A stretch of 46,614 bases of DNA, filler included, from Jimgerdemannia flammicorona (taxonomy: Eukaryota), in assembly GCA_003990765.1 (NCBI GenBank). It is 2 parts of 2 records of this genome, joined end to end, with 100 filler letters (N's around TTAATTAATTAA, not from the genome) between each part and the next. Parts side by side here need not be neighbours in the genome. Positions count along the whole stretch, not along the records: positions 23,364 to 46,614 come from RBNJ01001129.1; 1 more part is not named here. One strand, given 5' to 3'. Within the stretch, counting starts at the first letter, position 1, and the number at the start of each line of letters is the position of its first letter. Under the pieces are notes generated by a model. That model saw only the letters and a program-made list of their open reading frames with translations. It was not told the DNA's origin and searched no databases. Both the position numbers and the translations under genes were made by a program. Shown here one piece after another: positions 2,136 through 46,614 of this stretch.

Positions 2136-2142
2136 AAAGAAC

Positions 2143-15246: not shown

Positions 15247-15281
15247 AGGATAGGATCACTATTTAACATTATTTCTTATAA

Positions 15282-18200: not shown

Positions 18201-18800
18201 TGATATATTTAATTTTGGGGATAGAGTGGAGTGTCAGCAGGGTCTTGGCCAGGATCTTTGGCCCAGTGGCTGGCAGGCAGCAGGGATTGGTGAGGAGTGG
18301 GACTGGGCAGATATCTGGTCTTGGAGTGCTGAGGTGCAGAGGTGGCTTCCTCCCAAGTTCTGGGTGGTATAGTGGCGAATGCTGCAGAGGAATGTTATGT
18401 TAAACTTTCACACTGGGCATCTGGTGGATGGTGGCCATTATGATTGTGAGGAGTATTACAATATAGAGTAAGCAAGGGGACTTGTGCAGATACTGGAATA
18501 TTGGCTGGGAGAGTGTGAGGTTTTGGGGGACTTTTGGATAGAAATAGAGAATAGACTGGGTGTGGAGCAAAGGCTGGCGGGTGTGGGAGGCTGCTGGGAG
18601 GACTTGAGATCTTGGCTAGTGGGTGGAGTGGGGGATAGCTGGCTCACTATAGGGTGGGTGTTGGCAGTGTAGGTGGGACTGGTGGGACATTGGCTTTTTG
18701 TATTTGAGGAGGGGCAGCAGATGGGGCTGTGGGAGAAGATTTCCCAATAGGAGGAGCTGTTGGGGGATCTGTTGACTGGATGGTGGGTGGGTTGGGGTCC
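15282..18800 (+). pseudogene. LINE A ORF2 (APE endonuclease-RT), disrupted; 3' limit approximate
   Basis: SLNVNGLRG, GDFN, RIDWIL, SDH (APE); NWRLIMLLNIDRK, QWGF, FLNQEKAYD, GVPQGDPLS, FADD (RT). The presumed start ATG is mutated to ATA. Confidence 0.85.
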
Positions 18801-18984
18801 TCAGGGCAGGCAATATCATGGTTTGGTGGCAAGGATCTATACACAGAGTGGAGGGAGAGTAGAGATTATGTTAGACAAAGTGGTCTTTCATCGAGAAGGG
18901 GGGCCCCTCAGGGGGATCGGATAGGAGGGATCACTATATTTATATAGGATAGATGGCATAATAAAGGAAGGAAGTCTAAGTGAC

Positions 18985-19020
<36 letters not shown>

Positions 19021-23263: not shown

Positions 23264-23363
23264 NNNNNNNNNNNNNNNNNNNNNNNNNNNNNNNNNNNNN
23301 NNNNNNNTTAATTAATTAANNNNNNNNNNNNNNNNNNNNNNNNNNNNNNNNNNNNNNNNNNNN
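23264..23363. other. Assembly gap with artificial TTAATTAATTAA six-frame stop linker
   Basis: N44-TTAATTAATTAA-N44, exactly 100 nt. Confidence 0.95.
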
Positions 23364-25647: not shown

Positions 25648-25770
25648 AAAAACTTGCCCATATAGGGCTATCCACTCAGGAAAATTATATCATCCTTGTG
25701 TAGTGGCCATACTAATCTTCTCTGTATAATTCTAATTTTTTCAAGTGTCAGCAGTCCTGAAGGACTTGAC
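25648..25770 (-). ncRNA. U6: U6 snRNA-like sequence, probably a mutated pseudogene
   Basis: The minus strand reads GTCAAGTCCTTCAGGACTGCTGAC (5' stem-loop) ...ATACAGAGAAGATTAGTATGGCCACTACACAAGGATGA... and ends in T5. It matches the U6 ACAGAGA box and ISL, with transitions. Confidence 0.85.
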
Positions 25771-26745: not shown

Positions 26746-29700
26746 ACATCTTTCTCCTAGACAATTTATGTTATACCAACTTCAAGCAGCAGTTTTCAAT
26801 ATAATTTAGAGAAAAGGTACTATAAAAATGTCATTAAGGAAGAGTTCTGATAGGTGTGCTGAGTCTGGTGGATCTGGGGTATTTGGCTGGCAGAAGGTGG
26901 GGAGAGGTTATAGACTGGAAATGGGGGCCTTTGGAGAGTTGAAGGGGAGAGAAGATTCTGAAGGAAGACCAGTAATGGGTGAAACTGGGAGTAGGCCTGG
27001 CCCCCCTAGCTTTGCAAATAAGGTGAAAGTGAGTGGATGGCTAACTGGAACTAGGGTGGGTGCTGCTGAGGGGAAGGGCAAGGTAAGCATCAGGAGGAGG
27101 AGTAGTACTCAGATAGGGGATGTGAACATAGGTACTAGAGGAGCTGTGGCTGGAGGTGTGACTGTTGATAGGAGTATGACAGAAAATCAGAAAGAAAAAA
27201 GAAATGTAACAGCTGATGGCAGAATGGGGCAGGGGTTTCCGATGTAGAAGGGGGACCTAGCAGAGAGTATAATGGGGCTGGCAGTAGCATTATTGCTCAA
27301 GAAGTCAATCTCGGAGTTTGTGGCTATCTTGTATTTCCAGGGCTTGGTGGTGACTGTGAGAATGGTCCTGGGGCTTATCTTAAAGCAGTTGGCTGAAGCT
27401 GCCTTATTGAAGTTCCTGAAGGGTCTGGAGAGGATTGAGGTGGGCTTTGAGGAGACAGGTCTGCTAGATGAGGCTCTGAAGACTAGAGTGGTGATCAGGG
27501 AAGTGGTGGTCTCTATGGTATACTATCTTAGGTGGGATCCCAGAGTGGTTCAGCTATTGGTGAAGAGAGTGCTTACAGTAATAGCAGTTGAGACGAGAAA
27601 GAGAATTGAGGAGGTGATGGCAGAGTATAGTAATGTTGTTGATATTAGTTTCCAGATATGGGAGGGAACCACTATCAGGACAGGTAATATTGATGTCCAG
27701 ATTTAGCTAATAGGAAAGGAGGCCACTGGAAAGACAAGTAACTGGCCATCAGTGATACTATGGGGGGCTTTTATCTATTGGGTGTCAAGGGTGAAAGAGA
27801 GTGAGGAGGAAGAGGAGGATCTACTGGAGGCTCTGAAAGAGATGCATGGGGCTGTCGAGCAGAGAGCAAAATTCTGGAAGAAATATGTAAAGTTGACATA
27901 TTTGGAGATTGTAGAGAAGAAGTATATTCGCACTGACAAGAGGTAGTGGGAGTAGGCCCAGAGGCATATGAGACAGAGAGAGCTGTTGGCAAGTATGAAA
28001 GGAGGAGTGAAGAAGAGGGTTGATGGGACTGAGGAGTCTGGGAATATTAAAGTCAGTGTCTGGGCTAGTAAAGGAGGAGGAGAGGTGGAGGCAGACAAGA
28101 AAGAGGTTGGGAAGATGCCAAGCAAGGATCATTATACAGATAGTACATTTGAAGTCTGGAAGTAGGATTTGGATAACACCCTCCCTCTCTTGTCAGGAGA
28201 GGCCCAGTTGTAATAAGAGAGGTAGTAGAGAATGTACCAATGCGAGGTACTCAGCAAGTATACTTTGGAATTCCCAATATAGTAAAAGAGAGTCAGGTAT
28301 TGGCAGTTAGCAAGGACAAGCTGGTGGATATCCCAGAGGAGAGGTGGGATGAGGCTGCTAGTGTAGGAGCAGATATTATAATGCTAGATGCAGGGAGGCC
28401 AGAGATGCCTGGAGGAAAGGAGGTGAAGAACCTGCTGTGGATGAGCAAGGTAATGGATAACCTTGCAGCTGAGGAGTTGGGAGAAGTAGACTTGTGTGTG
28501 ATGCCTGAGGAGTACTGGGTGTGGATTCTGTATAGAGATAGAGTGGTTGAGGTGCTGAAAACAGAGATTTTTGCAATTTTTCTGGAAGAAGAGAGATACA
28601 AGATTGATAAGATGAGAGAGGCTGAGCTGGCAGTTGTTGCTAGTGAGTGGGCTGCCTACTGTTGGGCATAGCATTATGGTTTGCAGCTCTGGCAGAAGGC
28701 CTGTCTGGAGTATCATGAGGACTTTGAGGAAAAAGAGGATGGGGAGATGGCTGAACTTCTAGAAAGATTGGAGGCAAAGGCAGCTGAAGAGAAGGAACTA
28801 GCTGCAGAACTTAGCTTGGACTTAGTACAGAAAGAGTTGAATGTAGATTTGTAGATGATGAGATAGATAATTAACTTTATTCCTTATAAATAGTACAATT
28901 AATATTTTCTTTCTGAATGTGAATGGATTATGGAGTTCTGAGTAGTATAAGAACATTTTTACTTAGCTTAAGAGATTAGAGGCTGATCTCTTTTTACTAC
29001 AGGATGTATAGTATGAGAATGAGGAGGATCAGGTAGAGTGGACTAGAGAATGGGGAGGAGCTACTGCTTTAATTAGCAAAGTGGTGATTCTCGTGAGGAA
29101 GGGTAGAGGAGATTTGGGTGAGATCAGAAGCTGGGGTGACTATTTGATCTAGGGAGAATGGCATAGATTTGGGTAGGAATCAGTGAGAGTTGGCTCCTGC
29201 TACTGTCCTGCAGTTAGGAGAGAGCAGATTGAGTGGATTAGGGATCTTTTGGAAGAGGGCATTCTCTTGGAGGAGGGCATTCTCTTAGAGGAGGGCACTC
29301 TCTTAGAGGAGGGCATTCTCTTAGAGGATGGGGTCAATGTTCTGAGAGATGACTTTAATATGGTACAGGATCTCTGGGTAGATCAAACTGATAGAGAGAG
29401 GAGTGCAGATGGGAGGAGTGGTGGTCTGGATAAGTGAGAGGAGGTTGAGATCCTTAGCTCCTTAGGGGATATAAGTAGAATATAGTAGGGCAACAGGAGA
29501 GTCTATATGCAATAGATGAATTGATTGAGTATGAGAATTGACTGGATTCTGATAGCAGAATGTTCGGGTATTGATATTTGAAGGAGTCTGGAGGTAGAGT
29601 GATGCCTATGGTCTGATTACCGGGGGCTTTTGGGGCAGAGGCAGTTTGGGGCGAGTGGAGATGGATCTGGACATTAGTGCCTTAACTCCTTTCTGCTAGC

Positions 29701-31929
29701 TGAAAAGTAGTTGTGGGACCCATGAGTGGATGATATTCAAGAGAAGATCACAAACTGGATATATAAGAGTTTATCTGTGAGTGTTTGTTGTATGAGATTG
29801 AAGGAGGCTGCAAGGGTATATTAGGGAGGAGCTGGTAGGGAGGCTGGGAGGCAGAGAAGGAAGTGAGTAAGGTTTACTTCTAACAGGCTGATTAGATTGC
29901 AGATAGAATGGGCTGATTTGCTTTCTTCTATAGAGATAGAGAATTGGAGGCTTGAATGGGTGATTTTGGAGGTAGTGGAGTTGCATCAGATATTGCTAGA
30001 AGAGAAAGAGATTTGTATAAAAGGAATAGCTGCCAGGCTATAATGGCAGAGACTTGAGGAGAGAGAGTGGTCTACTAGATACTTATCTAGGCTTCTCCAA
30101 GCTAGAAGGGTACAATATAGATAGGATAGGGTTCTTAATGCCAAGGGGGAGATAGTGCATAGTATGCAATAGATCTTTGAGATACTGAAGGAGAGATGGA
30201 GGAGACTATAGAGTGAGGAGAAAGGGAGTGCTAATGAAGAAATGATTGGAGACACATTGCAGGAGTGGGAACCACCACAAGTAGAGAAACTTAGTAACTT
30301 GATTCTACCAGTCCAAGAGGAGGAAATCCAGAGAGTCCTTGTATTAACTAAGCTCAGGACAGCACTAGATGAGGATGGGCTGTCTTGGGACTTTTGGAAG
30401 AAGATGGCAAAGATCTCTAGAGTATTAGGAGAGATGACAGCCCTCTGTGATCATGTCCTATTAGAGGGCAAGTGGGTTGGAGAGCAGGATCTGGGGCTGA
30501 TGGCTTCCTGTACAAAGATAAGAGAAGGAGAGAAAACTGAAAGAACTGGAGACCAATTATGCTCCTGGATATTAACAGAAAGATTGTGACTAAGGTGATT
30601 GTTGTAAGGCTATTGAAGGTGGCCCAACAGATGCTAGGTGAAGAGCAGTGGGACTTTGTTAGAGGCTGACTTATCAGAGATAAGACTGCCTGGGTGCTTG
30701 GTATCATTGAAGAGACATAGGCTTATAGACCAGATAGAAGACTGATCTTTTTGGATTAGGAGAAGACCTATGACTGTGTTTAGAGAGTCTGGCTGGACAA
30801 GGTGCTATAGTGTTTCCCCACAATTTTAAGTCTCTATATTGAATTTGTTGGAGGGCAGTAGGGCTGTACTACTATATAATAGTTACCAGGGTCTGAAATT
30901 TCACTTAAGAAGAGGAGTTCCTCAAGGAGATCCACTGTCTCCCCTTCTCTATACTCTTTCATTAAAATCTCTGATAGATAGGATTCATCAGAAGATAGCA
31001 GAGATCTCTCTGTATGGTATAGTATAGAAGGTGGGGGCTTTTGCTGATGATATGAGAGTTGGACTTGACTCTGTAGCAGATATTGAGGCACTAAGAAGTC
31101 AGTGGAATAGTATGAGGTATACTTTGGGGCAAAATTTAACTGGCATAAGTGTGAGATAATAGTGCTGGGGAATGGGCTAGTGGGGAGAGACATTATTGGA
31201 ATAATTGTCCCTACAGGAGAGATAGTTCGGTATCTAGGCATCTTCCTCTCTATATATGGCTCTATCTTACCATGAGTATGGTGGGAGAGGAGGGTGGACA
31301 TTTGAAAGGAAGCTCTTAGAGGTTGTGGGGGTCACCATATCTCTCTGGCAGGATGGGTGTCAATTCTAAATGTCTACTAGTTCTCCAAGCTATGGTATGT
31401 GGCCTATTACTTCGACTTCCCAGCTTGGATGAGGAGGCTGACAAAGCTAGCTAGAAATTGGATTTGGATAGAGAGGAGATCTCAGATCAGTTGAGATACT
31501 CTTGGAATACCAATAGTTAGAGGAGAACTAGGCCTTGTAGACTTCTCTAAAAGGCTGTACTACTTATAGATCTGGTGATTAAAAAGGGCTATTGAACTGC
31601 AGAGAGAGGGTTGGGTACCACTGATACAAAAGATATAGGAGAGGAGATTCTCCCCTCAAGAGTCCTCAAGAGATTTGCTCTTACTGGTGGATCTGAATAG
31701 AAGTCGAAGGATGTGGTATAAGGGCTTCTGGTGGGGGGTAGTGGATGAAGCATACTGAATAGGTCTGTACTCGCAGGGTATGAGGGGGAGGTACTATGGG
31801 AACTAGCAATGTAGCGATGGAATAGACTACTTCTGTGAGGTGTTCCACTTGATAAGTTTAATATTGAGAATAGAGTAAAGTGTCAGCAGAGACTTGGCCA
31901 AGATCTTTGGCTGAGTGGTTGGCAGGTAG
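26746..31929 (+). mobile_element. LINE C: decayed copy of the LINE A family, 3'-truncated at a telomeric tract
   Basis: 5'UTR, ORF1 (ATG 26828) and ORF2 (~28890 onward) are colinear with LINE A up to GGCAGGTAG (LINE A ~18280). No 3'UTR or poly(A). Confidence 0.9.
29252..29323 (+). repeat. 18-bp tandem repeat x4 (EEGILL) in the LINE C endonuclease
   Basis: GAGGAGGGCATTCTCTTA x4; LINE A has a single copy. Confidence 0.9.
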
Positions 31930-31964
31930 TTAGGGGTAGGGTTAGGGGTAGGGTTAGGGTTAGG
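31930..31964 (+). repeat. Interstitial telomeric tract (TTAGGG with GTAGGG variants)
   Basis: TTAGGGGTAGGGTTAGGGGTAGGGTTAGGGTTAGG. Confidence 0.9.
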
Positions 31965-34900
31965 CTTCAAGTAAGAATTTATTTATTGTAGAGAAGAAAA
32001 GATACATCAGAGCAATAAATGGCAAAGACTCCTAAGATGAGAAAAGCAGAACAAGGCCAGTGAAGTAAACAACTAGCTAAGAAGTACAAGACAAAGGCTA
32101 GAGAGGTAATCACCCTATCGATGGGCTGGATAAAATCATTTTGTCATGACTATAAAGATAAAAAATGCAGAAAGCAAAGAAGAGAGAAACTAAGATAAAA
32201 TATACAAATGACTGATACTAACTACAGAAATAATATCAATAACTAAATACCAAATAGCTGATATGAGAAATATAACTCAATGCACTCTCAACAACAAGAG
32301 AATCAACTGGAGTGAATGAGAGAAAAAAAAAAAAAAGAATTAAAGAAAATGTGTGATTGCTCAATTACCCAAGTATCATTGTAATCTCGGCTAGGCAGAA
32401 CCCGACCACGAGGTGGCCACCAGAATTATACATGGCATCAATAGCATGGTAGGCTGTCTTGTGAAGAGCATGAAGAGAGTATGTGTGAAGTTCATTCTGC
32501 TATTTGTCATTGGTAAACCAATCAAGCTGTTCAGCATGATCGGTATCATCTCGAAAAGCAGCATAGAAACCATCAAGAAGACCATATCTGAGGAGATAGC
32601 CATGATGAAACTTATCTCCATAGGGGCAGGGGTGGGGTTGGCCAAAGTAGCCATAATACTAGGCAAGCATAGAGTGCCCAAGCTGGGGAGAGAAGGAGAG
32701 AATGTGATCAGCAACTCTAGACTATAAGCAGTCTTTGGGAGTAATGTACCAGACAAGCACCTGGGAGAAGGAGGCCCATTCCTGCAACAATTGGTCCCGA
32801 AGGAACGATTGGAGGAAGGAGCAGAGCAAGCGAGTCTTGTGGACCTGGGGATGAAGGTCCCAGTACTAGTCAAGAAAGTCAAGCCAGGAAGTCCAATGCT
32901 GGAACTTACCTATGATGAACCTGGGGGATGCATGATAAAGCACTCACTAAGGGAGTTGATGAGGTTGTTGCCGGACTTGCTACACCAATCCAGATAGGCT
33001 TGGAACATGCAGCAGAGGTCTGACATATGACAGAAGAAGGAGGCGAGGTCAAGAATCAAGCTACCAAGCAAGGAACAGTCAGAAAATCCGACCACCTAAG
33101 TAACAGCATCATCAAAGACCTGCTTGGGATGCTTCAGCACCTGAAGCCCTATGGTAGTTGCCGGGCAGGAGGCTCATAGAAGGGGAAGGCCATATTCCAG
33201 CTGAGGCCTGATGAAAGTTTGAACGATGGCCAGCTTGACCATTGGCAACCAGAGGGGCCCATGGGAATGGCAGAATCCAAGAGTTCATTCCACCTTTACC
33301 ATATTCTGTAATACCAGGCTGACAAAGTCAAACCCTTTGTTAGTGTACAGTACACCCAGGTATATATAGGAGAGAGGCCATGGGCAGGGCTTGCCACCAA
33401 TCTGTACAATACAGTCGATAGAGCCAACATAGCTGCACTTCTTAGGATTGAGTTCCATACCATTCACCAGGAGCCAGTTGTTGCAGAAGTCAATCATCCT
33501 CTGTCCTTCTGTAGCAGTGCAGAGAGTGAGGGCAATATCATTGGCAAAAAAGAGCCTGAGAGAGAAGTCATACTCCTTAAACTATTCATCAAAGGAGGTG
33601 GCAAGGGGGTCAATAAAGACATCAAAGAGCCAGGGGGAGAGGAGGGAGCCCTGAAAAAGGCCATGCTCAGTGGAGACTGAAGGGGTGATGAGGCCATTAA
33701 TAACTACCTGGTAAGAACAGTAGTTGATCAGGCTGCGAATAATGCTTAGGAGGGCTGCATCAGCACCTCTTGCCTCAAGTCAAGAAAGAATAAGCTTGAG
33801 GGAGACTCTATCATAAGCCTGCCAGAGGTCAAGGAAGAAATGGTAGCCCTATCTCTTGGCCCATATCTCATATGAAAGCAAGACATGAGAGAGGGACAAG
33901 AAGCAGGTTCAGAAGCTGCCTTGGTAGTGCAACATTTCTGACAGGTCACTTTGGCTCTTGACATAACCTTCCAAACACTGCTTAAAGAGTCTACGAAATA
34001 TTTCAGTGAGAGTGATAGAGCGAAAACCATTGATTGTATATGATTTCTCCTTCTTAGAGATGGGGGTAATAATGGCAGAGTTCCAGTGGTGGAGAGTGAG
34101 CCCCCAAACCACACACATCTAGAAGAAGAAGGACAGGGCTTTGGAGAGGCTACAGAGAGTGTCCTTCTCACCTGCCATTACTTGAAGGATCTAGACATGC
34201 AAGGAGTTCGCCCCACAGGCCTTCGAGAGGGGGTAGCTGTAGATAGCCCTCCAAACTATAGGCTGGTCAAACCAAGCCTACTGCCCAAGAGCACCAATAC
34301 CAAAGGAAAAGACATCCTTGGAGTTATCGAGGCGGAGGGAGGCATTAGGCTGGCTAAAGATAGTGGTAAAGTGAGCAACTATATCGTCAAACACTGAAAT
34401 AGCAGGAGAATGAGATTAAAGGGCAGTGGAGGGGGTGGAGCGGTATGCTCACTTGAAATAATGGATAGCATCAGAGACAGAGAATGCACTGCAAAGAAGG
34501 TCCTGCCAGAGGAGTGGTGCTGCTCTGATTTCTCTTGCATCATACGAGTCAAGAATGTCCTCATAGACTAACTGTAGACCAGAGATCAAAAGAGTATCAA
34601 GAGAATCCACAAACTACTGGCAATCTTCTACAGAGTGAAAGCTAGAGATGTGGTCCCAGATGGAATAAATGGACCTGACAACAGTATCACAAATGATATC
34701 TGCTGATTCCCAAAGGTAGGCTTGAATGACCAGATCGGTCAGATATCTTACAGAGTAGCAGCGGACACCAGCCAAGATAGCAACTGGCAAGGGGGAGAAG
34801 GGAAAGGAGACAGTGAGGAGGGAGGGGTGATCTGTAGCGATAGGAGGGGTTGAGCAGGTGAGAGATGTGTAGAGGGATGTAGTGGCGAATATGTGATCAA

Positions 34901-37317
34901 TGTATGTGGATCCAGCCACTAGGGTCAGGTGGTTCAATGACCACATCATCAGAGAGGTGTTGATGACATCCATCCAATTGCAAGGACCAGAGTTGACATT
35001 ACCAAGACAAGCACCAAAGTGGATATTGATGTCACTGATCAGGAGGGCCTTAACCAGGAAGAGTCCAGACATAAGATCAAAGAAGCCACCAATGGGAAGA
35101 GAGGGAGAGACATAAACCCTGATCAAAGCCAAGCCCTGGAATATGAGCTGGAAATAGAAGAGATCGGCAGAGGATATAGAAATGAGGGGGTGAAACAGTT
35201 TGACACAAGGACTACAAGCTCACCATTCTGGTAGCCCATGATTTTGTGTGATGCCAGAGGAGAGAACATGTGAATAAGCAGAGAGGGATGCAGTGGAATG
35301 TACCATATTTCACATATAAAAAGAATATTAAGGGCAGGATCAATCAACCAACTGAGTACATCAAACTTGTCCTGAGTTAGTTTATATTATATGCATTGAG
35401 GAACCTGACTCTCATTGAGGGCTGGGTGCATTAGTACCAACAGCATAGGAAGCACCTAAGGAGGAAGCTTCAGCTTCCTAATCTATTGCCATCTCACTAG
35501 TCATGACTACAATACCACTTGCCTTTGAAGCAGGGCCAGCCAACAGGGGAGCAGAGGAGGGGGGAGAGTTAGGCTAAGTTCTACAGCCTAAGCTTGATAG
35601 AAGATCTGCACCTCAGGCTGCTTTATAGTGGCATTGCTTGCCAACTACCGAACCTGAGTATGGAAAGATTGGAGTACCTGTGTCTTCATGGCCTCTGTGG
35701 TGTTCTTGTTGTAGGGGAGCACAGGGTCCTAGGCCAAGAGTACTGAGAACCCAAGTGCGTTCATCTTCTTTTGGAATTATGACATAATCAGAGCAGAGCA
35801 GGAATTCGATAGTTGATACCGAGATGTACGATATGTTGAGAATCTTTGACAATATCACATAGATGTCATACAAGTTCTTCTGGATCTAACCAATCTTAAG
35901 ATGGGTAAATCCATTGATGTAAACATGCTGCAGCTGAGTACCTCTCTCAGTCAGCAACAAATAAGAGATTGGCTTGTAGGTCATGTGTGAGAGGGCGGCA
36001 GTGGCGGCTGCCCTTTCCATCTCGAGGTAGGCCTGGGTCCTATCTTTGATAGAAACCTTCTTGGTGGTGACAGCATACAATTTGGGGAGGGCAGGGGTTG
36101 AAGCAGGGGATGAAGATGGGCCAGTGGTGCTGGGTCCTATCTTTGATAGAAACCATCTTAGTAGTGACAGCATACAATTTGGAGAGGGCAGGGGTCGAAG
36201 CAGGAGACAAAAATGGGCCAGTGGTGCTGGGTCCTATCTTTGATAGAAACCTTCTTGGTGGTGACAGCATACAATTTGGAGAGAGCAGGGGTCAAAGTAG
36301 AGGATGAAGATGGGCCAGTGGTACTGGGTCCTACAGGCATAGTCTGGGGCACTGGCCCGGGAGCCTTGGCTTTGTCCTTTTTAGGGGGTGTGACTTTAGC
36401 AGCCTGGGGTGCTACCATGGGAGTTATCTCTTTTAGTAGCATACTAGACTGCGATGCAGTGGCTTTAGCAGCCCGCTTATCCACTTGCTTCTGAGCCTTA
36501 GACCGCCTGTTCATGGCAGGGCCAGTAGAAGGGAGGGCTGAGGACTTGGGGAGGGCAGATGTAGAAGGGACAGCAGGGGTACTTCCTGAAAGAGTACCAA
36601 ATAACAAGGAGGTGGTGGGCACAGACCACGCAGTAAGCTGCGCCATCAGCTGAGTATTGATTTTGGCCAGATCAGCCACTTGAGTCAGCAGATCTGAGAT
36701 CTGCTTCCTTATCATGGCTATCTCTAAGACCAAATTGGGATTAGCTGAGGGGCCAGTATGACCAGCAGTCAGGGTCATGCCCAATCTAGTGTTCGGGTGA
36801 CCACGCTTATTCCAATTGAGGGGCAGAGGTATGGGGGAGAAGAGTGGGTGCTGGGCATTGTGGTCCAAAACAGAAGAGATCGTGATCTCTTCGTCATCTT
36901 TCACATCACACAGGGAAGATAAATATGCTGATATTGGTCATGCATCCCCGCACGACCTACACATTGCTGTAAGGCTACCCTCGCTGAAGCTGAGGGAAAG
37001 AAAACTGATGCTGTGATATTCAGCATAGCAGAGCAAAGCACCAAAGTGCACAAAGAGACAGATAGCATTACCATCATCATCAATGATGGAGGAGGTGGCC
37101 AACATTGCTGAAATAGGTGGAGGTATGTTTGCTTGTATTTGTGAAATTGTAAAATATGGGTCATATGACCTTTGTTTATTCAATGAAAAAATAATGCGGA
37201 AGGGGGTATTTATACCTGATGGGAGACTTAGCTAATCAAAGTGGCTGTTTTCTTAATTTGGAATAGCTTTGGGCCATAAAGCCAAGTCTAGCCAAATGGG
37301 AAAATCATGTGAGTGGC
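31965..37317 (-). mobile_element. Telomere-associated APE non-LTR retroelement, copy 1 (full length ~5.35 kb, decayed)
   Basis: ORF1 ~37180-35412 (coiled coil, P/S/T-rich linker). ORF2 35415-32365 has APE (LFICEIW, ISDIN, IDH, TDH), RT (GFRSITLTE, QGSF, QGSLLSP, LNPKKC, YIYLG) and a C-terminal Cys/His knuckle. ~400-nt 3'UTR with no poly(A). Confidence 0.88.
36034..36324. repeat. 97-bp tandem triplication in copy 1 ORF1
   Basis: TGGGTCCTA recurs at 36034, 36131, 36228 and 36325. Copy 2 has a single unit. Confidence 0.9.
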
Positions 37318-37339
37318 TTGGGTTAGAGTTAGGGTTAGG
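37318..37339 (+). repeat. Telomeric tract between copies 1 and 2
   Basis: TTGGGTTAGAGTTAGGGTTAGG. Confidence 0.85.
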
Positions 37340-40300
37340 CTTCAAGTAAGGATTTATTCATTGTAGAGAAGACAAGATATATTGGAGCAACAAAAGACAA
37401 GACTCCTAAGATGAGAAAAGCAAAACAAGGCCAGCAAAGTAAATAACTAGCTAGAAAGTACAAAACGAAGGCCAGAGAGATGACTACCCTAGAGATGGGC
37501 TGGATAAAACCATTTTATCACAGTTGTAAAGATAATAAATGTGGAAAGCAAGGAAAAGGTAAGCTAAGATAAAATATACAAATACCCGGTACCAACTACA
37601 GAAACTATATCAATATCTAAACTTCAAATAACTGAAATTTGGTGAATAACTCAATGCACTCTCAATAATCAGAGAACTAACCAAGGTGAATGAGAAAAAG
37701 AAAAGAAGTAAAGAAAATGTGCAATCACTTGATCACCCAAGCATTTTTGTAATCTTGGTCAGGCAGAACCTAATCACGAGGTGGGCACCAGAATTATATA
37801 TAGCATCAGTAGCATGGTAGGCTAACTTATGAAGAGCATGAAGAGAGTAGACATGAAGTTCTTCTTGCTATTCATCATTAGTAAACCAATTGAGTTGTTC
37901 ATCATGATTGGAAATATCTCAGAATGTGGAATAGGAATCTTCAAGAAGACTGCACCTGAGGAGATGGTCATGATGAAACTTATCTCCACAGGGGCAGGGG
38001 TGAGGTTGGTCAAAGTAGCCATAATACCAGGCAAGGGCAGAGTGCACAAGCCAGGGGGGGAAGGAGAGGACATGATCAGTACCCCTCGACCACAAGCAGC
38101 CTTTGGGGATAATATACTGAATGAGAGCCTGGGAGGAGGAGGCCCATTCCTGGAGTAGCTGGTCCTGAAAGAATGACTAAAGGAAGGAGTGGAGTGAGCG
38201 AGTCTTGTGGACCTAAGGATGAAGATCTCAGTACTAGTCAAGGAAGTCAAGCCAAGAGGTCCAATGCCAGAACTTGTCAATAATAGAACCTGGGAGACAC
38301 ATGATAAAGCACTCATTAAGGGGACCAATGAGATTGTTACCAGACTTGCTACACCAATCCAGATGGGCTTGGAACATGCAGCAGAGGTCTGATGTACAAT
38401 GAAGGAACAAAGAGAGGCCGAGAATCAAACTGCCAAGCGAGGGCTGGCCAGAAAATCCAACCACCCAGGCAATAGTGTCATCAAAGATCTGCTTGGGACA
38501 CTTCAACACCTGAAGCCCTGTAGTAGTTGCTAGACAGGAGGCACATAGGAGGGGGAGGTCATACTTCAGCTGAGGCCTGATGAAAGTTTGTACAATGGCC
38601 AACTTGACCATTGGTGGCCAGAGGGGACTACAGGCATGGCAGAACCCAAGAGTTCACTCCACCTTTGCCACATTCTGTAATGCAAGGCTGATAAAGTCAA
38701 ACCCTTTGTTAGTATACAGCACACCCAGGTACACATATGAGTGTGGTCATGGGCATGGCTCTCCCCAATCCGCACAGTACAGTCAGCAGGACCAACATAA
38801 CTGTACTTCTTAGGATTGAGTTCCATACTATTCACCAGAAGCAGTCTTCACAGAAGTCAATCATTCTCTGCCCCTCTGTGGCAGTGCGAGGAGTGAGGGT
38901 GATATCATCTGCAAAGAAGAGCCCAAGGAGAAAGTTGTACTCCTTGAACTATTCATCAAAAGAGGTGGCAAGGGGGTCAATAAAGATATCAAAAAGCCAG
39001 GGAAAGAGGATGGAGCCTTGGAAGAGACTGCACTCAGTAGGGACTAAAGGGGTGATAAGGCCATTGACAACCACCTAATAGGAACAGCGATTGAAGAGGC
39101 TTCAGATAATGCTAAGGCGGGCTGTATCAGTACCTTACACCTCAAGTTATGAAAGAATAAGCTTGAGAGAGACTCTATCATATGTCTGCCAGAGGTTAAG
39201 AAAGACATGGTGGTCCCATCTCTTGGCCCATGTCTAATGTGAGAGCAAGATATAGAAAAGGGATAAGAAGCGGGTTCAGAAGCCATCTTGGCAGTGTGAC
39301 ATTTCTGTCAGACCACTTCAGCTCTTGATGTAACCTTCCAAGCACTGCTCGAAGAGTCCAAGAATCATTTTGGTAAGAGCGATAGGGTGAAATCCATCGA
39401 TTGTTTGCAATTCCTCCTTCTTAGGAACTAAGGTAATAATGGTGGAGTTCCAGTAGTGAGGAGTGAGCCCACAAACCACACACATCTGGAAGAAAAAGGA
39501 CAGGGCTTTGGACAGGCTACAGGGGACATCCATCTCACCTGCCATCACCCAAAGGATCCGGACATATAAGGAGTTAGCTCTACAGGCCTTAGAGAGGGGG
39601 TAGCTGTAGATAGCTCTCCAAACTGCAGGTTGGTCAAACCAAAACTATAGCCTAAGAGCTCCCACACCAAGGTGGAAGATGTTCTCAGAGTCATCGAGGC
39701 AGAGAGAGGCATTCAGTTAGCCAAAGATAATAGTAGAGTGAGCAACCACATTGTCAAACACCAAGACAGTAGAGGATTGAAACTAGAGATAGGTGGAGGG
39801 GGTAGAGTGGTAGGCTCGCTTGAAACCATAGATGGCATCAGAGACTGAAAATGTACTGTGAAGGAGGTCTCACTGAGGGAGCAGCACTGCTCTAATCTCT
39901 CTTGCATCATATGAGCCAAGAATGTCCTTACATACTGACTATAGACCAGAGGTCAAAAGGGTGTTGAGAGAATCCACGAACTGCTGGCGATCTTCCACAG
40001 AGCAAAATCCAGTAATATGGTCTTAAATGGAATAGATAGACCTGACAACAGTATCATAAACAATATCTGCTGATTCCCGAAGGTCAGCTAGAATGACCGG
40101 ATCAGTCAGATATTTCGCAGAGAAATGGCAGATGCTTACTAGAGCAGCAACTGGCAAGGGTGAGAAGGAGAAGGAGATGGTAAGAAAAGAGGAGTGGTCA
40201 GTAGTAACAGGGGGAGTAGTACATGTGAGGGACATGTAGAGGGATATGGTGGTGAATGCATGATCAATGGGTGTGGATCCAGTCACCAGGGTCAGATGGT

Positions 40301-41858
40301 TCAATGACCATATTATCAATGAGATGTCAAAAACATCCATCCAATCTCAAGGACCAGAATCGACATCACCAAGGTGGGCACTGAAGCAGGTATTAGTGTC
40401 ACTAATCAAAAGAGCCTTGTCCAGGAAGGGACCAGACACCAGATCATGGAAACCACCAATAGGAAGAGAGGGGGGGGTGTAAACTCCAACCAAAGCCAGG
40501 CCCTTAAACATGAGCCGGATATGGAAGGGGTCAGCAGAGGACTCAGAAATGAGAGGGGTGAATCAGTTTGACATGAGAACTACAAGACCACTATTCTGGT
40601 GACCCATGATCCTGTATAATACCAGGGGAGAAGACATGTAAATGAGCGGAGAGAGATGTAGTAGAATGTGCCATATTTCACAAATGAAAAGAACATCAAG
40701 GGCAGGACCAATCAACTGACTGAGCACATCAAACTTGTCCTGAGTTAGTCTGTGTGCTTTGAGGAATCTGACTCTCATTGGGGGCCAGGTGCAGTAGCAC
40801 CAACAGCATGAAAAACATCTAAGGAGGAAGTTTCAGCTTCCAGATCCATTGCTATTTCACAAGTCATAGCCACAGTACCACCTACCTTTGAAGCAGGGCC
40901 GGCCGATGGAGTGGCAGAGGATGGGAGGGTGAGACCAAGTTCCACAGCCCATGCCTTATCGAAGGTCTGTACCTCAGGCCTCTTAACAGTGGCTTCACCA
41001 GCCAACTGCCAGATCCAAGCATGGAAGAATTAGAGTAACTGTACTTTTATGGCCCCTATAGCATTCTTGTTGCAGGGGAGCACAGGGTCTCAGACCATTA
41101 GAACTGAGAACCTGAGTGACTTTATCCTCTTTTGGAATGCCATGATATAATCAGGGCAGAGAAGAAATTCAATAGTTGATACTGAGATATATGACATGTT
41201 GAGAATCTTAGATAACATCACATAGACATTGTACAGATACTTCTGGATCTACCTGATCTTGAGATGAGTAAATCTGTTGATGTAAACACATTGCAGCTGG
41301 GCACCTCTCTCCATCAGTGACAAATGAGAGGTCAGCTTGCGAGTCATATATGAAAAAGTGGCAGCTGTGACAGCCCTTTCCATCTCAGGGTAGGGCTGGG
41401 TCCTATCTTTAATAAAGACCTTTTTGGTGGCAGTGGCATATGATATGGAGGGGGTGGGGATTGAAGCAGGGGACAAAGATGGACCAGCAGTGCTGGGTCC
41501 CACAGGCATAACCTGGGGCACTGGCCCAGAGGCCTTAGCCTTGTCCTTTTTAGGGGGTGTGGCTTGGCAGCCAGAGGTACTGCTATGGGAGTTGCCTCCT
41601 TTGGTGGCATACCAGACTACAATGTGGTAGCTTTAGTGGCCCACTTGTCTGCTCGCTTCTGGGCCTTTGACTGCATGTTCGCAGCAGGACCAGTTGGAGG
41701 GGGGGCCAAGGACTTGGAGGGAGTGAATGTAGAAGGAGTAGTGGGGGTACTTCTTGAAGGAGCACCAGATGACGTGAGGGCAGTGGCACAAATTGCGCAG
41801 CAAGATGTGCCATTAGCTGAGTATTGATCTAGCCAAATGGAGAAATGACTTGAATGGG
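37340..41858 (-). mobile_element. Telomere-associated retroelement, copy 2 (both termini present, ~630-bp deletion removing the ORF1 start)
   Basis: Colinear with copy 1. At ~41828 it jumps from copy-1 ~36660 to copy-1 ~37288 (TCTAGCCAAATGG). Followed by the degenerate tract CTAAGATTAGG at 41859-41869. Confidence 0.88.
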
Positions 41859-41869
41859 CTAAGATTAGG

Positions 41870-44800
41870 CTTCAAGTAAGGATTTATTCATTGTAGAGAA
41901 GATAAGATACATTGGAGCAATAAACAGCAAAGACTCCTAAGATGAGAAAAGCAGAACAAGGCCAGCAAAGTAAACAACTAGTTAAGAAGTACAAAAACAA
42001 AGGCCAGAGAGGTGACCATCCTTTGGATGAGCTGGATAAACCATTTTGTCATACTGTAAAGATAATAAATGCAGAAAGCAAAGAAAAGAAAGGCTAAATA
42101 AAAAACACATTTGCCTGGTACCAACTACAGGAACTGTATCGACAAACAAATACCAAATGACTGATATAAGATAAATAACTCAATGCACTCTCAACAATGG
42201 GAGAACCAACTGAGGCAAATGAGGGGGAAGAAAGAAATAAAGAAAATATGCAATCACTTGATCACCCAAGCATCTTCATAATCTCGGTCAGGCAGAACCC
42301 AACTGCGAGATGGCCACCAGAATTACACATGGCGTCGATAGCATGGTAGGCTGTCTCATGAAGAGTGTGAAGAGAGTAGGTGTGAAGTTCTTCCAGCTAT
42401 TTGTCATTGGTAAACCAATCGAGTTGTTCATCTTGATCAGAAGAACCTCGGAACATGGAATATGAACTGTCGAGAAGACCACACCTGAGGAGATGGCTAT
42501 AATGAAACTTATCTCCATAGGAGCAGGGGCAGGGTTGGCCAAAATAGCCATAATGCCAGACAAGGGCCAAACAAACAAGCCAGGGAGGGAAGGAGAGGAT
42601 GCAATCGGTATCGCACGACCACAAGCGGCCTTTGGAGGTGATATACCGAACAAGAGCCTGGGAGGAGGAAGCCTATTCCCACAGCAGCTGATCCCAAAGG
42701 AAGGACTGGAAGAAGGAGCGGAGTGAGCGAGTCTTGTGGACCTGGGGACAAAGGTCCCAATACCAGTCGAGAAAGTCAAGCCAAGAGGTCCAATGCTGGA
42801 ACTTGTCAAAAATAGAACCTGGGAGATGTGTGACAAAGCGCTCACTAAGGGGGCTGATGGAGTTGTTGTCAGACTTACTACACTAATCCAGATGGGCTTG
42901 GAACATGCAGCAGAGGTCAGACATATGACAAAGAAAGGAAGAGAGGCCAAGAATTGAACTGCCAAGCAAGGGATAGCCAGAAAATCCAACTGCCCAAGCA
43001 ACAGCATTATCAAAGACCTGCTCGAGATGCTTCAATACCTGAAGCCCCATGGTAGTTGCCGAGTAGGAGGCTTATAGAAAGAGAAGGCCATACTCCAGCT
43101 GAGGCCTAATAAATGTCTGTATGATGGCCAGCTTGACCATTGGTGACCAGAGGGGACTATGGGCACAGCAGAATCCAAGAGTTCATTCCACCTTTGCCAT
43201 ATTCTGCAACACAAGGCTAACAAAGTCAAACCCTTTATTAGTGTATGGCATGCCCAGGGACACATAAGAGGGGGGTCGTGGGCAGAGTTCACCCCCGATC
43301 TGCACAGTACAGTCAGCAGGGCCAATATAACTGTACTTCTTGGAGTTAAGCTCTATACTGTTCACCAGAAGCTGATCTTCACAAAAGTCAACCATGTTTT
43401 GCCCTTCTATGGCAGTGCGGGGGTAAGGGCGATATTGTCAGCAAAGAAGAGCCCAAGGAGAAAGTCATACTCCTTGAACTGGTCATCAAAGGAGGTGGCA
43501 AGGGAATCAATAAAGATATCAAAGAGCCAAGGAGAGAGGAGGGAGCCCTGAAAAAGGCCATGCTCAGTGGGGACCGAAGGGGTGACAAGGCCATTAACAA
43601 CCACTTGATAGGAACAGTGATTAAACATGCTTCAGATAATGCTAAGAAGAGCTGCATCAGCATCTCGCACCTTAAGTCATAAAAGAATGAGCTTGAGAGA
43701 AACTTGGTCATATGTCTGCTGAAGGTCAAGAAAGACATGTTGGCCCCATCTCTTGGCCTACGTCTCATGTGAAAGCAAGATATGGGAAAGGAATGAGAAG
43801 CGGATTCGGAAGCCACCTTGGCAGCATGACATTTCTGTCAGGCCACTTCAGCTCTTGATGTAACCTTCGAAACACTGCTCGAAGAGTCTACGAAACATTT
43901 CAGTCAGATCAATAGGGCGAAATCCATCAATCGTTCGTGATTCCTCCTTCTTAGAGACTAGGGTAATGATAGTGGAGTTCCAGTGGTATGGAGTAAGCCC
44001 CCAAACCATATACATCTGGAAGAAAAAGGAAAGGGCTTTGGATAGGCTACAGGGAGCATCCTTCTTGCCTGCCATCACCCAAAGGATGTAGACATGCAAA
44101 GAATCAGCCCTACAGGCCATTGAGAGAGGGTAGCTGCAGATAGCCCTCCAAACTGTAGGTTGGTCAAACCAAGACTATAGTCCAAGAGTACCAATGCCAA
44201 GAGAAAAGACATCCTCAGAGTTATCGAGCTGAAGAGAGATGTCTGGCTACCCAAAGATAGTGGTAAAGTAAGCAACCACATCATCGAACACCAGGACAGT
44301 GGGGGAGTGGGAGTGGAGAGGGGCAAGAGGAGTGGAGTGGTATGCTCACTTGAAACCATGAAGGGCATCAAAGAACAAAGATGCACTGTGAAGAAGATCT
44401 CACCAAGGGAGCGGCACCACCCTGATTTCTCTTGTATCATACAAGCCAAGAATGTCCTCACAAACTGACTGTAGACCAGAGGTCAAAAGGGCATCCAGAG
44501 AATTAACAAACTGCTGGCAATCTTCTACAGAGTAAAAGCCAGCGACATGGTCTTGGATAGAGTAAATGGACCTGACAATAGTATTGCAAATGATATCTAC
44601 CGATTCAAGAAGGTGAGCTTGAATGACCAGATTGGCCAGGTATCTCGCACAGTAATGATAGACACTAGCCAAGACAGCAACTGGCGAGGAGAAGAAGGGG
44701 AATGAGACAGTGAAGAGGGAGGGGTGGTCGGTAGTAATAGGAGGAGTGGTGTAGGTGAGGGATGCATGGAGGGATGTGGTGGCGAATGCATGGTCAACGC

Positions 44801-45486
44801 ATGTGGATCCAGCCATTGGGGTCAGGTGGTTTAACAACTACGTCATCAGAGAGGTGTCAACGACATCCATTCGATCACAGGGACCAGAGTTGATGTCACC
44901 AAGGTGGGCACTGAAGCAGGTGTTGATATCACTGATCAAAAGGGCCTTACCTAGAAAGAAACCAGACATAAGATCTCGGAAGCCACCAATAGGAAGAGAG
45001 GGGGGGCATAAACCCCAATCAAAGCCAGACCCTGGTGAGCCAGATATGGAAAAGGTTAGCAGAGAACCTGGAAATAAGGGTGGTAAATTGATTTGACATG
45101 AGAACCATGAGACCACCATTCTGGTGGTCCACAATTCTGTTCGATATCAGAGGGGAGGACATGTAAATGAGTGGAGAGGGATGCAGTGGGATGTGCCACA
45201 TTTTACATATGAAAAGAACATTGAGGGCAGGACCAAACAACTGACTGAGCACATCGAACTTGTTCTGAGATTTTCTGTATGTATTGAGGAACCCGACTCT
45301 CATTGTAGGCTGAGCATGTTAGTGCTAACAGCGTGAGAAGCACCTGAGGAGGAAGCTTCAACTTCTAAATCTATCGCCATCTCACCAGTCATAGCTACAG
45401 TATCATCTGTCTTCAAAGCAGGGCTGGCCAACGGGGAGGTAGGGGAGGGGAGAGTGAGGCCGAGTTCTGCAGTCCAAACTCTGTAG
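41870..45486 (-). mobile_element. Telomere-associated retroelement, copy 3 (5'-truncated within ORF1)
   Basis: ORF2 starts at 45303 (MRVGFLN). GFRPIDLTE, GLFQGSLLSPWLFDIFIDSL, LFFADN. Ends ~180 nt into the 3' end of ORF1. Confidence 0.88.
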
Positions 45487-45501
45487 AGGGTTAGGGTTAG
45501 G
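45487..45501 (+). repeat. Telomeric tract between copies 3 and 4
   Basis: AGGGTTAGGGTTAGG. Confidence 0.85.
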
Positions 45502-46614
45502 CTTCAAGTAAGAATTTATTCATTGTAGAGAAGATAAGATACATCGGAGCAACAAACGGCAAAGACTCCTAAGATGAGAGAAGCAAAACAAGGCCAGCGA
45601 AGTAAACAACTAGCTAGGAAGTACAAAAAACAAAGGCCAGAGAGGTGACCACCCTTTGGTCGGGCTGGATAAAACCATTTTGTCACGGCCATAGAGATAA
45701 TAAATGCAAAAAGCAAAGAAAAGAAAAGCTAAGATAAATACGCAACGCCCGGCGCCAACTACAGAAACCGTATCGACAACTGAACACCAAATGACTAACA
45801 TGAGATGAATAACTCAATGCATTCTCAACAACGGGGGAACCAACCAAGGCGAATGAGGGGAAAGAAAAGAATAAAGAAAATGTGCGATCGCTCGATCACC
45901 CAAGCATCTTCGTAATCTCGGTCAGGCAAAACCCGACCGCAAGATGGCCACCAGAATTACACATGGCGTCGATAGCGTGGTAGGCTGTCTCGTGAAGAGC
46001 GTGAAGAGGGTAGGCGCGAAGTTCCTCCTGCCATTCGTCACTGGAAAACCAGTCGAGCTGTTCATCTCGATCTGAAGAACCTCGGAAAGCAGAATACGAA
46101 CCGTCGAGAAGACCGCACCTGAGGAGATGGCCACGATGAAACTTATCTCCACAGGGGCAGGGGCGGGGTTGGCCAAAGTAGCCATAGCGCCAGGCGAGGG
46201 CAGAACGCACAAGCCGGGGGGGGAAGGAAAGGACGCGGTCGGCGCCCCGCGACCGCAAGCGGCCTTTGGGGGTGATGTACCGAACGAGAGCCTGGGAGGA
46301 GGAGGCCCATTCCTGCAGCAGCTGATCCCGAAGGAAAGACTGGAGGAAGGAGCGGAGCGAGCGAGTCTTGCGGACCTGGGGACGAAGGTCCCAGTACCAG
46401 TCGAGGAAGTCAAGCCAAGAGGTCCAACGCCGGAACTTGTCAATGATAGAACCCGGGGGACGCGTGACAAAGCGCTCGCTAAGGGGGCCGATGGGGTTGT
46501 TGCCCGACTTGCTACACCAATCCAGGTGGGCTTGGAACATGCAGCAGAGGTCAGACGTGCGACGAAGGAAGGAAGGGAGGCCGAGAATCGAACTGCCGAG
46601 CAAGGGACGGCCGG
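45502..46614 (-). mobile_element. Telomere-associated retroelement, copy 4 (3' part, barely mutated, continues beyond the window)
   Basis: Same 3' junction TTAGG|CTTCAAGTAAG. CpG-rich, with an open ORF2 frame. Confidence 0.9.
45896..46614 (-). CDS. C-terminal part of copy 4 ORF2 with CPCGDKFHRGHLLRC zinc-knuckle-like motif
   Basis: At least 235 codons without a stop, homologous to the stop-riddled frames of copies 1-3. Confidence 0.8.
   Translation of the reverse strand, partial: GRPLLGSSILGLPSFLRRTSDLCCMFQAHLDWCSKSGNNPIGPLSERFVTRPPGSIIDKFRRWTSWLDFLDWYWDLRPQVRKTRSLRSFLQSFLRDQLLQEWASSSQALVRYITPKGRLRSRGADRVLSFPPRLVRSALAWRYGYFGQPRPCPCGDKFHRGHLLRCGLLDGSYSAFRGSSDRDEQLDWFSSDEWQEELRAYPLHALHETAYHAIDAMCNSGGHLAVGFCLTEITKMLG

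Follow-up and report, generated by a model that had tools for sequence, protein, structure and literature searches.

A decayed head-to-tail array of APE-type LINE copies joined to TTAGGG telomeric repeats in Jimgerdemannia flammicorona

The window, a stretch of 46,614 nucleotides from the Jimgerdemannia flammicorona assembly GCA_003990765.1, probably preserves a dead head-to-tail array of an APE-type LINE that belongs to a deep, unnamed clade and targets TTAGGG repeats in one orientation. Positions 23264–23363 form an N gap that contains a TTAATTAATTAA linker, and the sequence to its left may not be physically adjacent. To its right, four LINE copies (c1 to c4) lie on the minus strand as collinear direct repeats, head to tail, with a spacing of 5368, 4529, and 3634 bp between successive copies. 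The 16-mer TTAGGCTTCAAGTAAG occurs four times on the plus strand (starts at 31960, 37335, 41865, and 45497) against a chance expectation of 0.06, and none of 100 shuffles reached four occurrences. The junctions between repeat and element (31964/31965, 37339/37340, 41869/41870, and 45501/45502) fall in the same TTAGG register in all four copies, reading TTAGG/CTTCAAG on the G-strand and ...AATAAA-13 nt-CTTGAAG/CCTAACCC on the sense strand, with AATAAA 13 nt ahead of the junction in each case. The 16-mer count and the direct repeats bear out the original prediction of four same-orientation copies in an identical register, and its junction positions were correct to within one base. Its further claims also hold, in that no A/T run or poly(A) is present at any of the four junctions, the 3' end of every copy points toward the centromere, and the copies are parted only by short telomeric tracts of 5–35 bp.

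The tracts beside the copies measure 35, 17, 5, and 13 bp, all on the plus strand. The innermost (31930–31964) is built of degenerate TTAGGGG/TAGGG units, the last being TTAGG; the second (37323–37339) consists of TTAGAG, TTAGGG, and TTAGG; the third (41865–41869) is TTAGG alone; and the fourth (45489–45501) consists of GG, TTAGGG, and TTAGG. Copy c1 (31965–37322, minus strand) is full length at ~5.36 kb, with the 3' end CTTACTTGAAG, AATAAA 13 nt upstream, and the 5' terminus ...CCCAAGCCACTCAC. Its ORF2 homology spans 33177–35213 (RT core 33354–33857) and its ORF1 remnant 35781–36023, while a tandem repeat of 3.1 copies of a 97-bp unit occupies the ORF1/5' region at 36033–36333, all on the minus strand. 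Copy c2 (37340–41864, minus strand) has internal deletions and a ~40-bp 5' terminus in common with c1; it retains an ORF1 remnant (40895–41386) and an ORF2 with a putative APE N-terminus near 40778, both on the minus strand, and the ORF2 alignment to relatives begins at residue 4. Copy c3 (41870–45488, minus strand) is 5'-truncated to ~3.6 kb and keeps its 3' end intact. Copy c4 (45502–46614, minus strand), the least decayed, runs off the window edge, and the true chromosome terminus lies beyond the sequence examined.

Inward of the first tract lies copy C (26750–31929, plus strand, with RVT_1 matches) of a different, G-rich LINE of the poly(A) type, which is cut short at 31929. Another copy of this LINE (copy A, 13130–19016), located left of the N gap, ends in a 29-nt poly(A). 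Copy C aligns with copy A only up to the equivalent of position 18279 and then switches to TTAGGGG.... Since the innermost tract is joined to a broken LINE copy, position 31929 looks like a broken chromosome end that was healed by telomere repeat addition. A tblastn search with the ORF2 of relatives of the telomere-joined element had no match to the G-rich LINE at E ≤ 1e-3, and the two families are therefore not close kin.

All four copies of the array are dead. They are 79–86% identical pairwise (about 80%), differ mostly by transitions, and carry many stop codons (60 in frame 1 of c1). Among 1106 shared columns, private C>T/G>A changes number 55 in c1, 59 in c2, 35 in c3, and 6 in c4, and the GC fraction climbs distally from 0.42 to the 0.54 of c4. 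Because decay declines distally, we infer that the array grew outward, toward its distal end. The per-site rate of C>T change is highest at CpG (24–25%), followed by CpA (14–18%), and the decay looks like that of methyl-cytosine. Classical RIP is marked by CpA-biased C-to-T change, a TpA/ApT index > 0.89, and a (CpA+TpG)/(ApC+GpT) index < 1.03; it was rejected as the cause, since the indices of 0.69–0.77 and 1.17–1.65, respectively, miss these thresholds. Neither this pattern nor the host genes marked the host as fungal: a homologue search with the CHAT gene gave two hits, and look-ups of the GT2 and CHAT proteins led mostly to bacterial clusters.

The coding remnants support a two-ORF, APE-type LINE. 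Copy c1 has an RVT_1 match in Pfam at 9.7e-15 and aligns with residues 86–760 of the relative P0001 at 1e-77, which covers the C-terminal half of APE and the RT and includes the motifs GDINI, DH, and SDHP. The ORF1 remnants present in c1 and c2 align at 1e-16, and c4 retains a 238-aa open frame as well as the Cys/His motif CPCGDKFHRGHLLRC at 46115–46159. An ORF2 with APE, RT, and a Cys/His knuckle had been proposed for the element; the RT (c1) and the Cys/His motif (c4) were recovered, whereas the putative APE domain of the window copies is supported by sequence homology to the relatives, a Pfam search of the translated APE regions having found an endonuclease family in none of seven frames.

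Intact relatives, found at metagenome loci and at ~30% identity, carry an N-terminal endonuclease. A profile built from the first 250 aa of 15 relatives matches the human L1 endonuclease at 1.4e-10, and the N, E, Y, GDxN, DH, and (S/T)DH positions line up between the two. This profile matches nine L1 endonuclease/ORF2p chains (1.4e-10 to 2.8e-8) and exodeoxyribonuclease III at E 0.53, with no match to a TRAS1 or R1Bm EN chain at E ≤ 1. In a fold comparison, an AlphaFold model of the relatives' endonuclease (pLDDT 83.5) matched L1 EN at 2.9e-11 and APE1 at ~1e-8. The N, E, Y, D-x-N, D, and D-H residues have a catalytic role in L1 EN. The residues N10, E36, Y104, D130, N132, D175, H176, and H198 are invariant in all 15 relatives, and the D of the final (S/T)DH is substituted in three of them (N in L003, V in L019 and L022). 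The whole-ORF2 profile matches L1 ORF2p, the best solved relative, at 1e-37 over both EN and RT. Using Pfam, RVT_1 was identified in all seven relatives searched (2.5e-31 to 3.6e-17), only one of the seven passed the cut-off for APE, and no significant family was found in ORF1 or the C-terminus of ORF2. The ORF1 of L003 and L007 is 556–639 aa long and overlaps the start of ORF2. Thus, the features of a LINE are present, including ORF1 and ORF2, a C-terminal Cys/His motif, 5' truncation (c3), and no LTRs.

Telomere linkage extends well beyond the window. In 13 of 28 related metagenome loci, the sense strand has at least two C-strand telomere units, (CCCTAA)n, just beyond ORF2. None of 52 more distant RT (LINE) loci has a C-strand tract at any place on the sense strand; G-strand repeats occur in two of these 52. 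AATAAA ends 10–17 nt ahead of the junction in 11 of the 13 loci versus 1.4% of background 40-nt windows, and no A run is found at the junction in any of the 13. On the other hand, nine of the 28 loci have at least 543 nt after ORF2 without a canonical tract there (L009, L010, L012, L015, L019, L020, L025, L026, and L028). In L009 and L012, the sequence at the expected position is telomere-like but degenerate, while L010, with a non-telomeric flank after CCTA, and L015, located inside a 39.5-kb contig with no tract following, look non-telomeric. The remaining six end too near ORF2 to be scored for a tract. Arrays and extreme 5' truncations also occur among the relatives (L005, L006, L012, and L016). 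In the ORF2 tree (FastTree, 49 rows × 957 columns, built without named-clade reference sequences and with weaker support values), the junction-bearing loci are spread throughout a 38-row clade (support 99) and occur on its earliest branch as well. The window copies nest within this clade, which is separate from the plant L1-like protein P0029 and from a second unnamed group. Based on the contrast of 13/28 with 0/52 and the AATAAA spacing, telomere linkage is therefore a property of the whole clade, in line with the proposed telomere-targeting family, and is not confined to the window array. The junction evidence covers the four window copies and the metagenome loci, as distinct from copies genome-wide.

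From the observed anatomy, domains, family-wide junction, healed break, and graded decay, we infer a nick site, a pairing with CCUAA, an RNA 3' end, and an order of events. The element RNA would end ~10–17 nt past AAUAAA, at or just inside CCUAA, and a telomeric G-strand 3' end (...TTAGG-3') would pair with this CCUAA. The most likely source of such an end is a nick at TTAGG^G by the endonuclease of the element itself, and the paired G-strand end would prime cDNA synthesis, which would account for TTAGG/CTTCAAG at every copy without poly(A). The element 3' end would face the centromere, and 5' truncation would be common. Read from sequence, the TTAGG/element register is only suggestive of a defined nick position, and the shared register could come from read-through template copying instead. 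As for the history of the array, a terminal break inside another LINE may have been healed by telomere addition, later copies would have inserted one after another into the terminal tract, always distal to the previous one and with 5–35 bp of repeats left between, and C-to-T decay would have inactivated the copies afterward.

The alternative that survives best, although we consider it unlikely, is end healing without a nick in the manner of HeT-A/TART, where the natural G-strand overhang of a short or eroded telomere would prime reverse transcription, every copy would be added at the extreme tip of the chromosome, and telomerase would re-cap the cDNA end. Eroded ends predict inter-copy tracts as short as those observed, the array begins 35 bp from the healed break, decay declines steadily in the distal direction, and the copies have the orientation that overhang priming requires. 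A full-length 5' terminus would also give a cDNA end ...GGCTTGGG-3', presumably a good telomerase substrate. However, insertion into a terminal tract yields the same order and orientation, the internal tracts may have shrunk after insertion, and SART1 has been shown to enter repeats and not ends (PMC7265360). Moreover, a dispensable nick would leave the invariance of the catalytic positions in 15/15 relatives difficult to account for. The conserved catalytic residues favor nick-dependent insertion, as in SART1/TRAS1, and the earlier suggestion that the element extends the chromosome end alongside telomerase was not supported.

A non-specific LINE with a telomere-like 3' tail, whose unit of element and tract was multiplied through segmental duplication or unequal crossing-over, would produce the identical register of every copy, their similar pairwise identities of 79–82%, and relatives without canonical tracts. 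Such an origin is very improbable and already largely refuted, as three kinds of 5' structure occur among the copies (full length, with internal deletions, and 5'-truncated), the four tracts are unlike in length and sequence, decay is graded along the array, and the innermost tract joins a break in an unrelated element. The same junction also recurs in 13 of 28 relatives at ~30% protein identity and in none of the 52 more distant loci. Segmental duplication had been named beforehand as an outcome incompatible with telomere targeting, and the differing 5' ends and graded decay make it unlikely. An assembly or scaffolding artefact that strung repeat copies together, for which the artificial linker and N gap at 23264–23363 might speak, is scarcely credible given ~20% divergence and distinct 5' ends, which are not those of collapsed or duplicated reads, the absence of N within 23364–46614, and the same architecture on independent metagenome contigs.

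The preferred reading, insertion of an APE-type LINE into TTAGGG repeats, sets the element beside several known telomeric retroelements. Like TRAS1 and SART1 of Bombyx mori (R1 clade), it is an APE-type LINE with probable sequence-specific insertion into telomeric repeats, a fixed orientation, and the same inferred primer strand. The nick made by the TRAS1 EN falls on the G-rich (TTAGG)n strand, and these elements have a ~20-nt poly(A) tail that is required for accurate initiation (PMC7265360). The window element differs in its lack of poly(A), its TTAGGG target as opposed to the insect TTAGG, and its TTAGG/element register. R1-clade (TRAS/SART) identity is unlikely on this character, as poly(A) between the 3' UTR and the repeat is absent at four window and 13 relative junctions. 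The nearest described analogue, by description alone, is Tx1-1_ACar (Tx1 clade; Kojima and Jurka, Repbase Reports 2013) of the lizard Anolis carolinensis, an APE-lineage LINE cited as residing in vertebrate-type telomeric repeats (PMC10088271, PMC5537684); the Tx1 clade is likewise stated to encode APE (PMC4640811). Its host is an anole, whereas the relatives of the window element come from environmental contigs. The view that APE-type telomere specialists are described from insects is thus incomplete.

Among fungal elements, MoTeR/FoTeR/Cnl1 (CRE clade) have a nearly identical architecture, being telomere-embedded with 5' tandem repeats and truncated and decayed copies (PMC12857005). On the sense strand, they bear C-strand repeats at both ends, with several copies 3' of the element and short motifs 5' of it, and they encode a restriction-like endonuclease at the C-terminus (CCHC...RHD...E...R/KPD) but lack an APE (PMC12857005). 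In contrast, the element described here has an N-terminal APE, the ~57 residues after the Cys/His motif contain neither an RHD nor an R/KPD motif, and a restriction-like domain was not found with Pfam. CRE-clade identity was rejected based on this N-terminal APE and the ~57-aa tail after CCHC without RHD...E...R/KPD, and the likeness is convergent, not by descent. HeT-A/TART/TAHRE of Drosophila (Jockey clade) also form head-to-tail end arrays with 3' ends toward the centromere. These elements substitute for telomerase, carry a terminal poly(A), and join chromosome ends and not short repeats (PMC7265360, PMC5537684); the window array differs in having telomerase-type repeats between its copies. 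Penelope-like identity was likewise rejected, since the element has an APE and L1 ORF2p is its best solved relative over EN and RT. Coprina/Athena elements reportedly have 3' ends joined to telomeric repeats, and overhang priming is said to have been proposed for them by Gladyshev and Arkhipova in 2007. The window element shares this 3' junction and orientation with Coprina/Athena and differs from these endonuclease-less elements with a Penelope-type RT in its L1-like RT and APE. The original prediction that the family is neither RLE-type (MoTeR/FoTeR/Cnl1) nor Penelope-like was therefore right.

In the literature searched, to which the Tx1-1_ACar Repbase report and supplements did not belong, no APE-type LINE family of TTAGGG telomeres was described from fungi, and to this extent the family is, as suspected, possibly undescribed. 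The best explanation is a deep, previously unnamed clade, which may be new or fall within Tx1 and which differs from R1 in the EN profile and the lack of poly(A). Retrotransposons specialised on telomeres serve as the principal model of the way in which selfish DNA can turn into part of a chromosome end. In the literature consulted, few such cases are known, and they belong to separate lineages: R1 and Jockey (insects), CRE (fungi), Genie (Giardia), Zepp (Chlorella), a single Tx1 element (lizard), and Penelope-like elements that lack an endonuclease. To these the present clade adds an L1-like lineage that has many intact members in environmental DNA, keeps its telomere junction across ~30% protein identity, and has an unusual, poly(A)-less 3' end placed 10–17 nt past AATAAA. 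With this lineage, one can test directly how the starting point of reverse transcription is set by an AP-type endonuclease together with pairing of RNA and target. A bolder and decidedly tentative view is that this is a deep and widespread clade of L1-like APE LINEs specialised on the TTAGGG telomeres of telomerase-positive eukaryotes, whose polyadenylation site would fall exactly at CCUAA, so that a nicked or natural G-strand end would pair with the last five templated bases and prime cDNA while the poly(A) is skipped. If true, elements of the clade could back up telomerase by capping ends that had broken or eroded, and the lifestyles of MoTeR and HeT-A would have arisen independently for a third time, here on an L1-like chassis.

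The array at 31930–46614 contains four minus-strand LINE copies: c1 (31965–37322), c2 (37340–41864), c3 (41870–45488), and c4 (45502–46614). The 16-mer TTAGGCTTCAAGTAAG occurs at four sites on the + strand (31960, 37335, 41865, and 45497) against 0.06 expected by chance, and none of 100 shuffles contained four or more. A direct repeat starts to the right of each site, giving a copy spacing of 5368, 4529, and 3634 bp. The open frames of the element, every one fragmented, lie on the minus strand, so that the element 3′ end appears in reverse complement as CTTCAAGTAAG and reads ...AATAAA-13 nt-CTTGAAG|CCTAACCCTAA... on the sense strand. Read on that strand, no A run is found at the four window junctions. 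The copies adjoin + strand telomeric tracts of 35 bp in degenerate units (31930–31964), TTAGAG TTAGGG TTAGG (37323–37339), TTAGG (41865–41869), and GG TTAGGG TTAGG (45489–45501). It is the + strand that reads TTAGGG in the 5′ to 3′ direction, which places the chromosome end on the right and turns the 3′ end of every element toward the centromere. These observations confirm the original prediction of four same-orientation copies with one junction register, no poly(A), and short intervening tracts, and the predicted junction coordinates are correct to within one base. There is no N within 23364–46614; two N runs around TTAATTAATTAA at 23264–23363 represent an artificial scaffold linker, the flanking sides of which may not adjoin in the genome.

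The element is a two-ORF APE-type LINE, as indicated by the combined APE, RT, and ORF1/ORF2 evidence, with L1 as the nearest among solved structures. The predicted RT is recovered by Pfam in c1 (RVT_1, 9.7e-15), and the predicted Cys/His knuckle is kept in c4 as CPCGDKFHRGHLLRC, which aligns with CPTCSLAFKRSHIHNC of a relative. A c1 query with stops as X matched seven unnamed environmental-DNA proteins (992–1139 aa, ~30% identity); the alignment to one of these, P0001 (residues 86–760, E 1e-77), includes the GDINI, DH, and SDHP motifs, while that of c2 begins at ORF2 residue 4 of the relatives. ORF1 remnants in the window copies align to relatives with E down to 1e-16, and intact relatives have an ORF1 of 556–639 aa overlapping the ORF2 start. 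A profile of the entire ORF2 ranks L1 ORF2p (1e-37, across EN and RT) above R2 proteins. The N-terminal APE domain claimed for the copies stands by the homology of c1 and c2 to the relatives, but Pfam detected an endonuclease family in none of the seven translated frames of the window copies. Pfam support is weak in the relatives, where one of seven (P0006) passed the Exo_endo_phos cut-off. An EN profile built from the N-terminal 250 residues in 15 relatives matched human L1 endonuclease over the whole domain (1.4e-10), and the predicted EN structure (pLDDT 83.5) matched L1 EN at 2.9e-11 and APE1 at ~1e-8; the profile search returned no endonuclease chain of TRAS1 or R1Bm at E ≤ 1. Residues N10, E36, Y104, D130, N132, D175, H176, and H198 are invariant in the relatives.

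The telomere link is a property of the family. Scanning metagenome contigs with the relatives' profile gave 80 loci, including 28 near-full-length family members (L001–L028). In 13 of these 28, ORF2 is followed on the sense strand by at least two C-strand telomere units, in the orientation of the window; none of the 52 more distant RT loci has C-strand units anywhere on the sense strand, and two of them have G-strand units. C-strand units are confined to the upstream side in L028; the expected position is occupied by 1.7 units in L021 and by degenerate telomere-like sequence in L009, L011, and L012. Six family contigs stop too soon past ORF2 for scoring, and nine loci have a tail of at least 543 nt and no canonical tract; these nine, including L010 with a non-telomeric flank and L015 internal to a 39.5-kb contig, count against strict telomere specificity. 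In an ORF2 FastTree, junction-bearing loci occur throughout the family clade (38 rows, support 99), first branch included, and the window copies are nested within it. Arrays also occur among the relatives, as a 3′ end and tract followed by a copy truncated within RT (L006), a tandem pair (L012), a 30-bp 3′-end stub between two tracts (L005), and a truncated copy with a tract on either side (L016). Some relatives have tandem repeats with CCTAACCCTAAT-like units, both in 5′ regions and between copies (L003:1–260 and 5339–5804, L008:4487–4560); these telomere-like variable repeats recall those known from FoTeRs. One distant RT locus with 25% identity to the family carries 16 TTAGGG units at a contig end (L029:4298–4394), in the opposite orientation.

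Among the 13 junction-bearing loci, 11 have an AATAAA ending 10–17 nt short of the telomere repeat (the exceptions are L008, at 1 nt, and L024, with no AATAAA); the hexamer is present in only 1.4% of background 40-nt windows. The four window copies share a distance of 13 nt. The repeat begins CCTAACCC in 7 of the 13. Element RNA may be cleaved at about the junction, and a G-strand 3′ end (...TTAGG) would pair with a terminal CCUAA and prime cDNA synthesis, leaving the poly(A) tail uncopied.

The window copies are mutually 79–86% identical, with transitions outnumbering transversions ~6:1 and 60 stops in c1 frame 1 alone. The C-to-T rate per site is highest at CpG (24–25%), followed by CpA/TpG (14–18%), CpC (9–11%), and CpT (4.5–6%). 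This decay looks like methyl-cytosine deamination; classical RIP was rejected as the cause because the usual indices are not RIP-like (TpA/ApT 0.69–0.77). A ~40-bp 5′ terminus is common to c1 and c2, the latter with internal deletions, c3 is 5′-truncated (~3.6 kb), and c4 ends at the window edge and so is partial. Private decay-direction changes number 55, 59, 35, and 6 in c1 to c4 (1106 columns common to all four), and GC rises from 0.42 to 0.54 toward the distal end. With the fewest such changes and the highest GC, the most distal copy, c4, is clearly the youngest.

To the left of the array is a second, G-rich LINE family on the + strand (RVT_1, 9.4e-23), with APE-like motifs by eye and three copies in the same orientation, A (13130–19016), B (19231–23263), and C (26750–31929). 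Copies A and B are head to tail with 215 bp between them, and copy A has a 29-nt poly(A). The 1-kb windows filled by these copies have an extreme GC skew (+0.31 to +0.56), so that their G-rich strand is also the telomeric G strand. Copy C parallels copy A up to the equivalent of 18279 and no further, switching to TTAGGGGTAGGG... from 31930, the signature of a healed terminal break; the junction 31929|31930 marks a terminal deletion of copy C that telomere addition healed. Beyond it come the telomeric LINE copies, younger toward the distal end, a pattern consistent with successive copies either inserting into the terminal tract or being added onto it. Array order and orientation are the same by either route. 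Nick-dependent insertion into the repeats is favored, because the catalytic residues are invariant in the relatives' EN and SART1, according to PMC7265360, inserts into repeats and not at ends. It is rather unlikely that copies were primed and added directly at the chromosome end, although the uniformly short inter-copy tracts and the start of the array at a healed break would suit such end priming.

The remainder of the window encodes a GH9 glycoside hydrolase (7346–8476, −, 5.5e-35) and a GT2 cellulose-synthase-like glycosyltransferase (9159–10685, +, 7e-14), which are divergently oriented and both appear intron-split. A CHAT-domain open frame (23365–25032, −; CHAT 9.1e-12, AAA_16 below cut-off) runs into the N gap and is 47–49% identical to two unnamed ~1300-aa proteins that also have ankyrin repeats. 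A full-length U6 snRNA match (25658–25761, −; 61.8 bits, E 2.6e-13) lies in a region of 24% GC that separates the CHAT gene from copy C. The window starts with a lysine-rich open frame that has a dUTPase domain (1–390, +, 9.2e-12) and probably belongs to a decayed retroelement; GC is 28–33% in 1–6000 and 11000–13100.

MoTeR, FoTeR, and Cnl1 make up a CRE-type clade whose restriction-like endonuclease is C-terminal, and FoTeRs have sense-strand TAACCC repeats at both ends (PMC12857005). Their architecture is that of the window element but the enzyme differs, restriction-like as opposed to APE, and the resemblance is therefore convergent. TRAS and SART are APE-type like the window family and belong to the R1 clade, but differ in having poly(A) and an insect TTAGG target (PMC7265360). 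Two reviews place the LINEs GilM/GilT, Zepp, MoTeR, TRAS/SART, and Tx1-1_ACar in telomeric repeats, the last being an APE-lineage element in lizard TTAGGG repeats (PMC10088271, PMC5537684). The premise that APE-type telomere specialists are confined to insects is thus incomplete. The interpretation in the original prediction is partly supported, by the family-wide junction, the centromere-facing 3′ end, and the APE-type assignment; its fungal host is presumptive and its role in extending the chromosome end conjectural. No description of an APE-type TTAGGG-telomere LINE from fungi or environmental eukaryotes was found in the literature searched. The interest of this family is raised by the telomere evidence throughout its members and by a junction that lacks poly(A) and lies adjacent to AATAAA.
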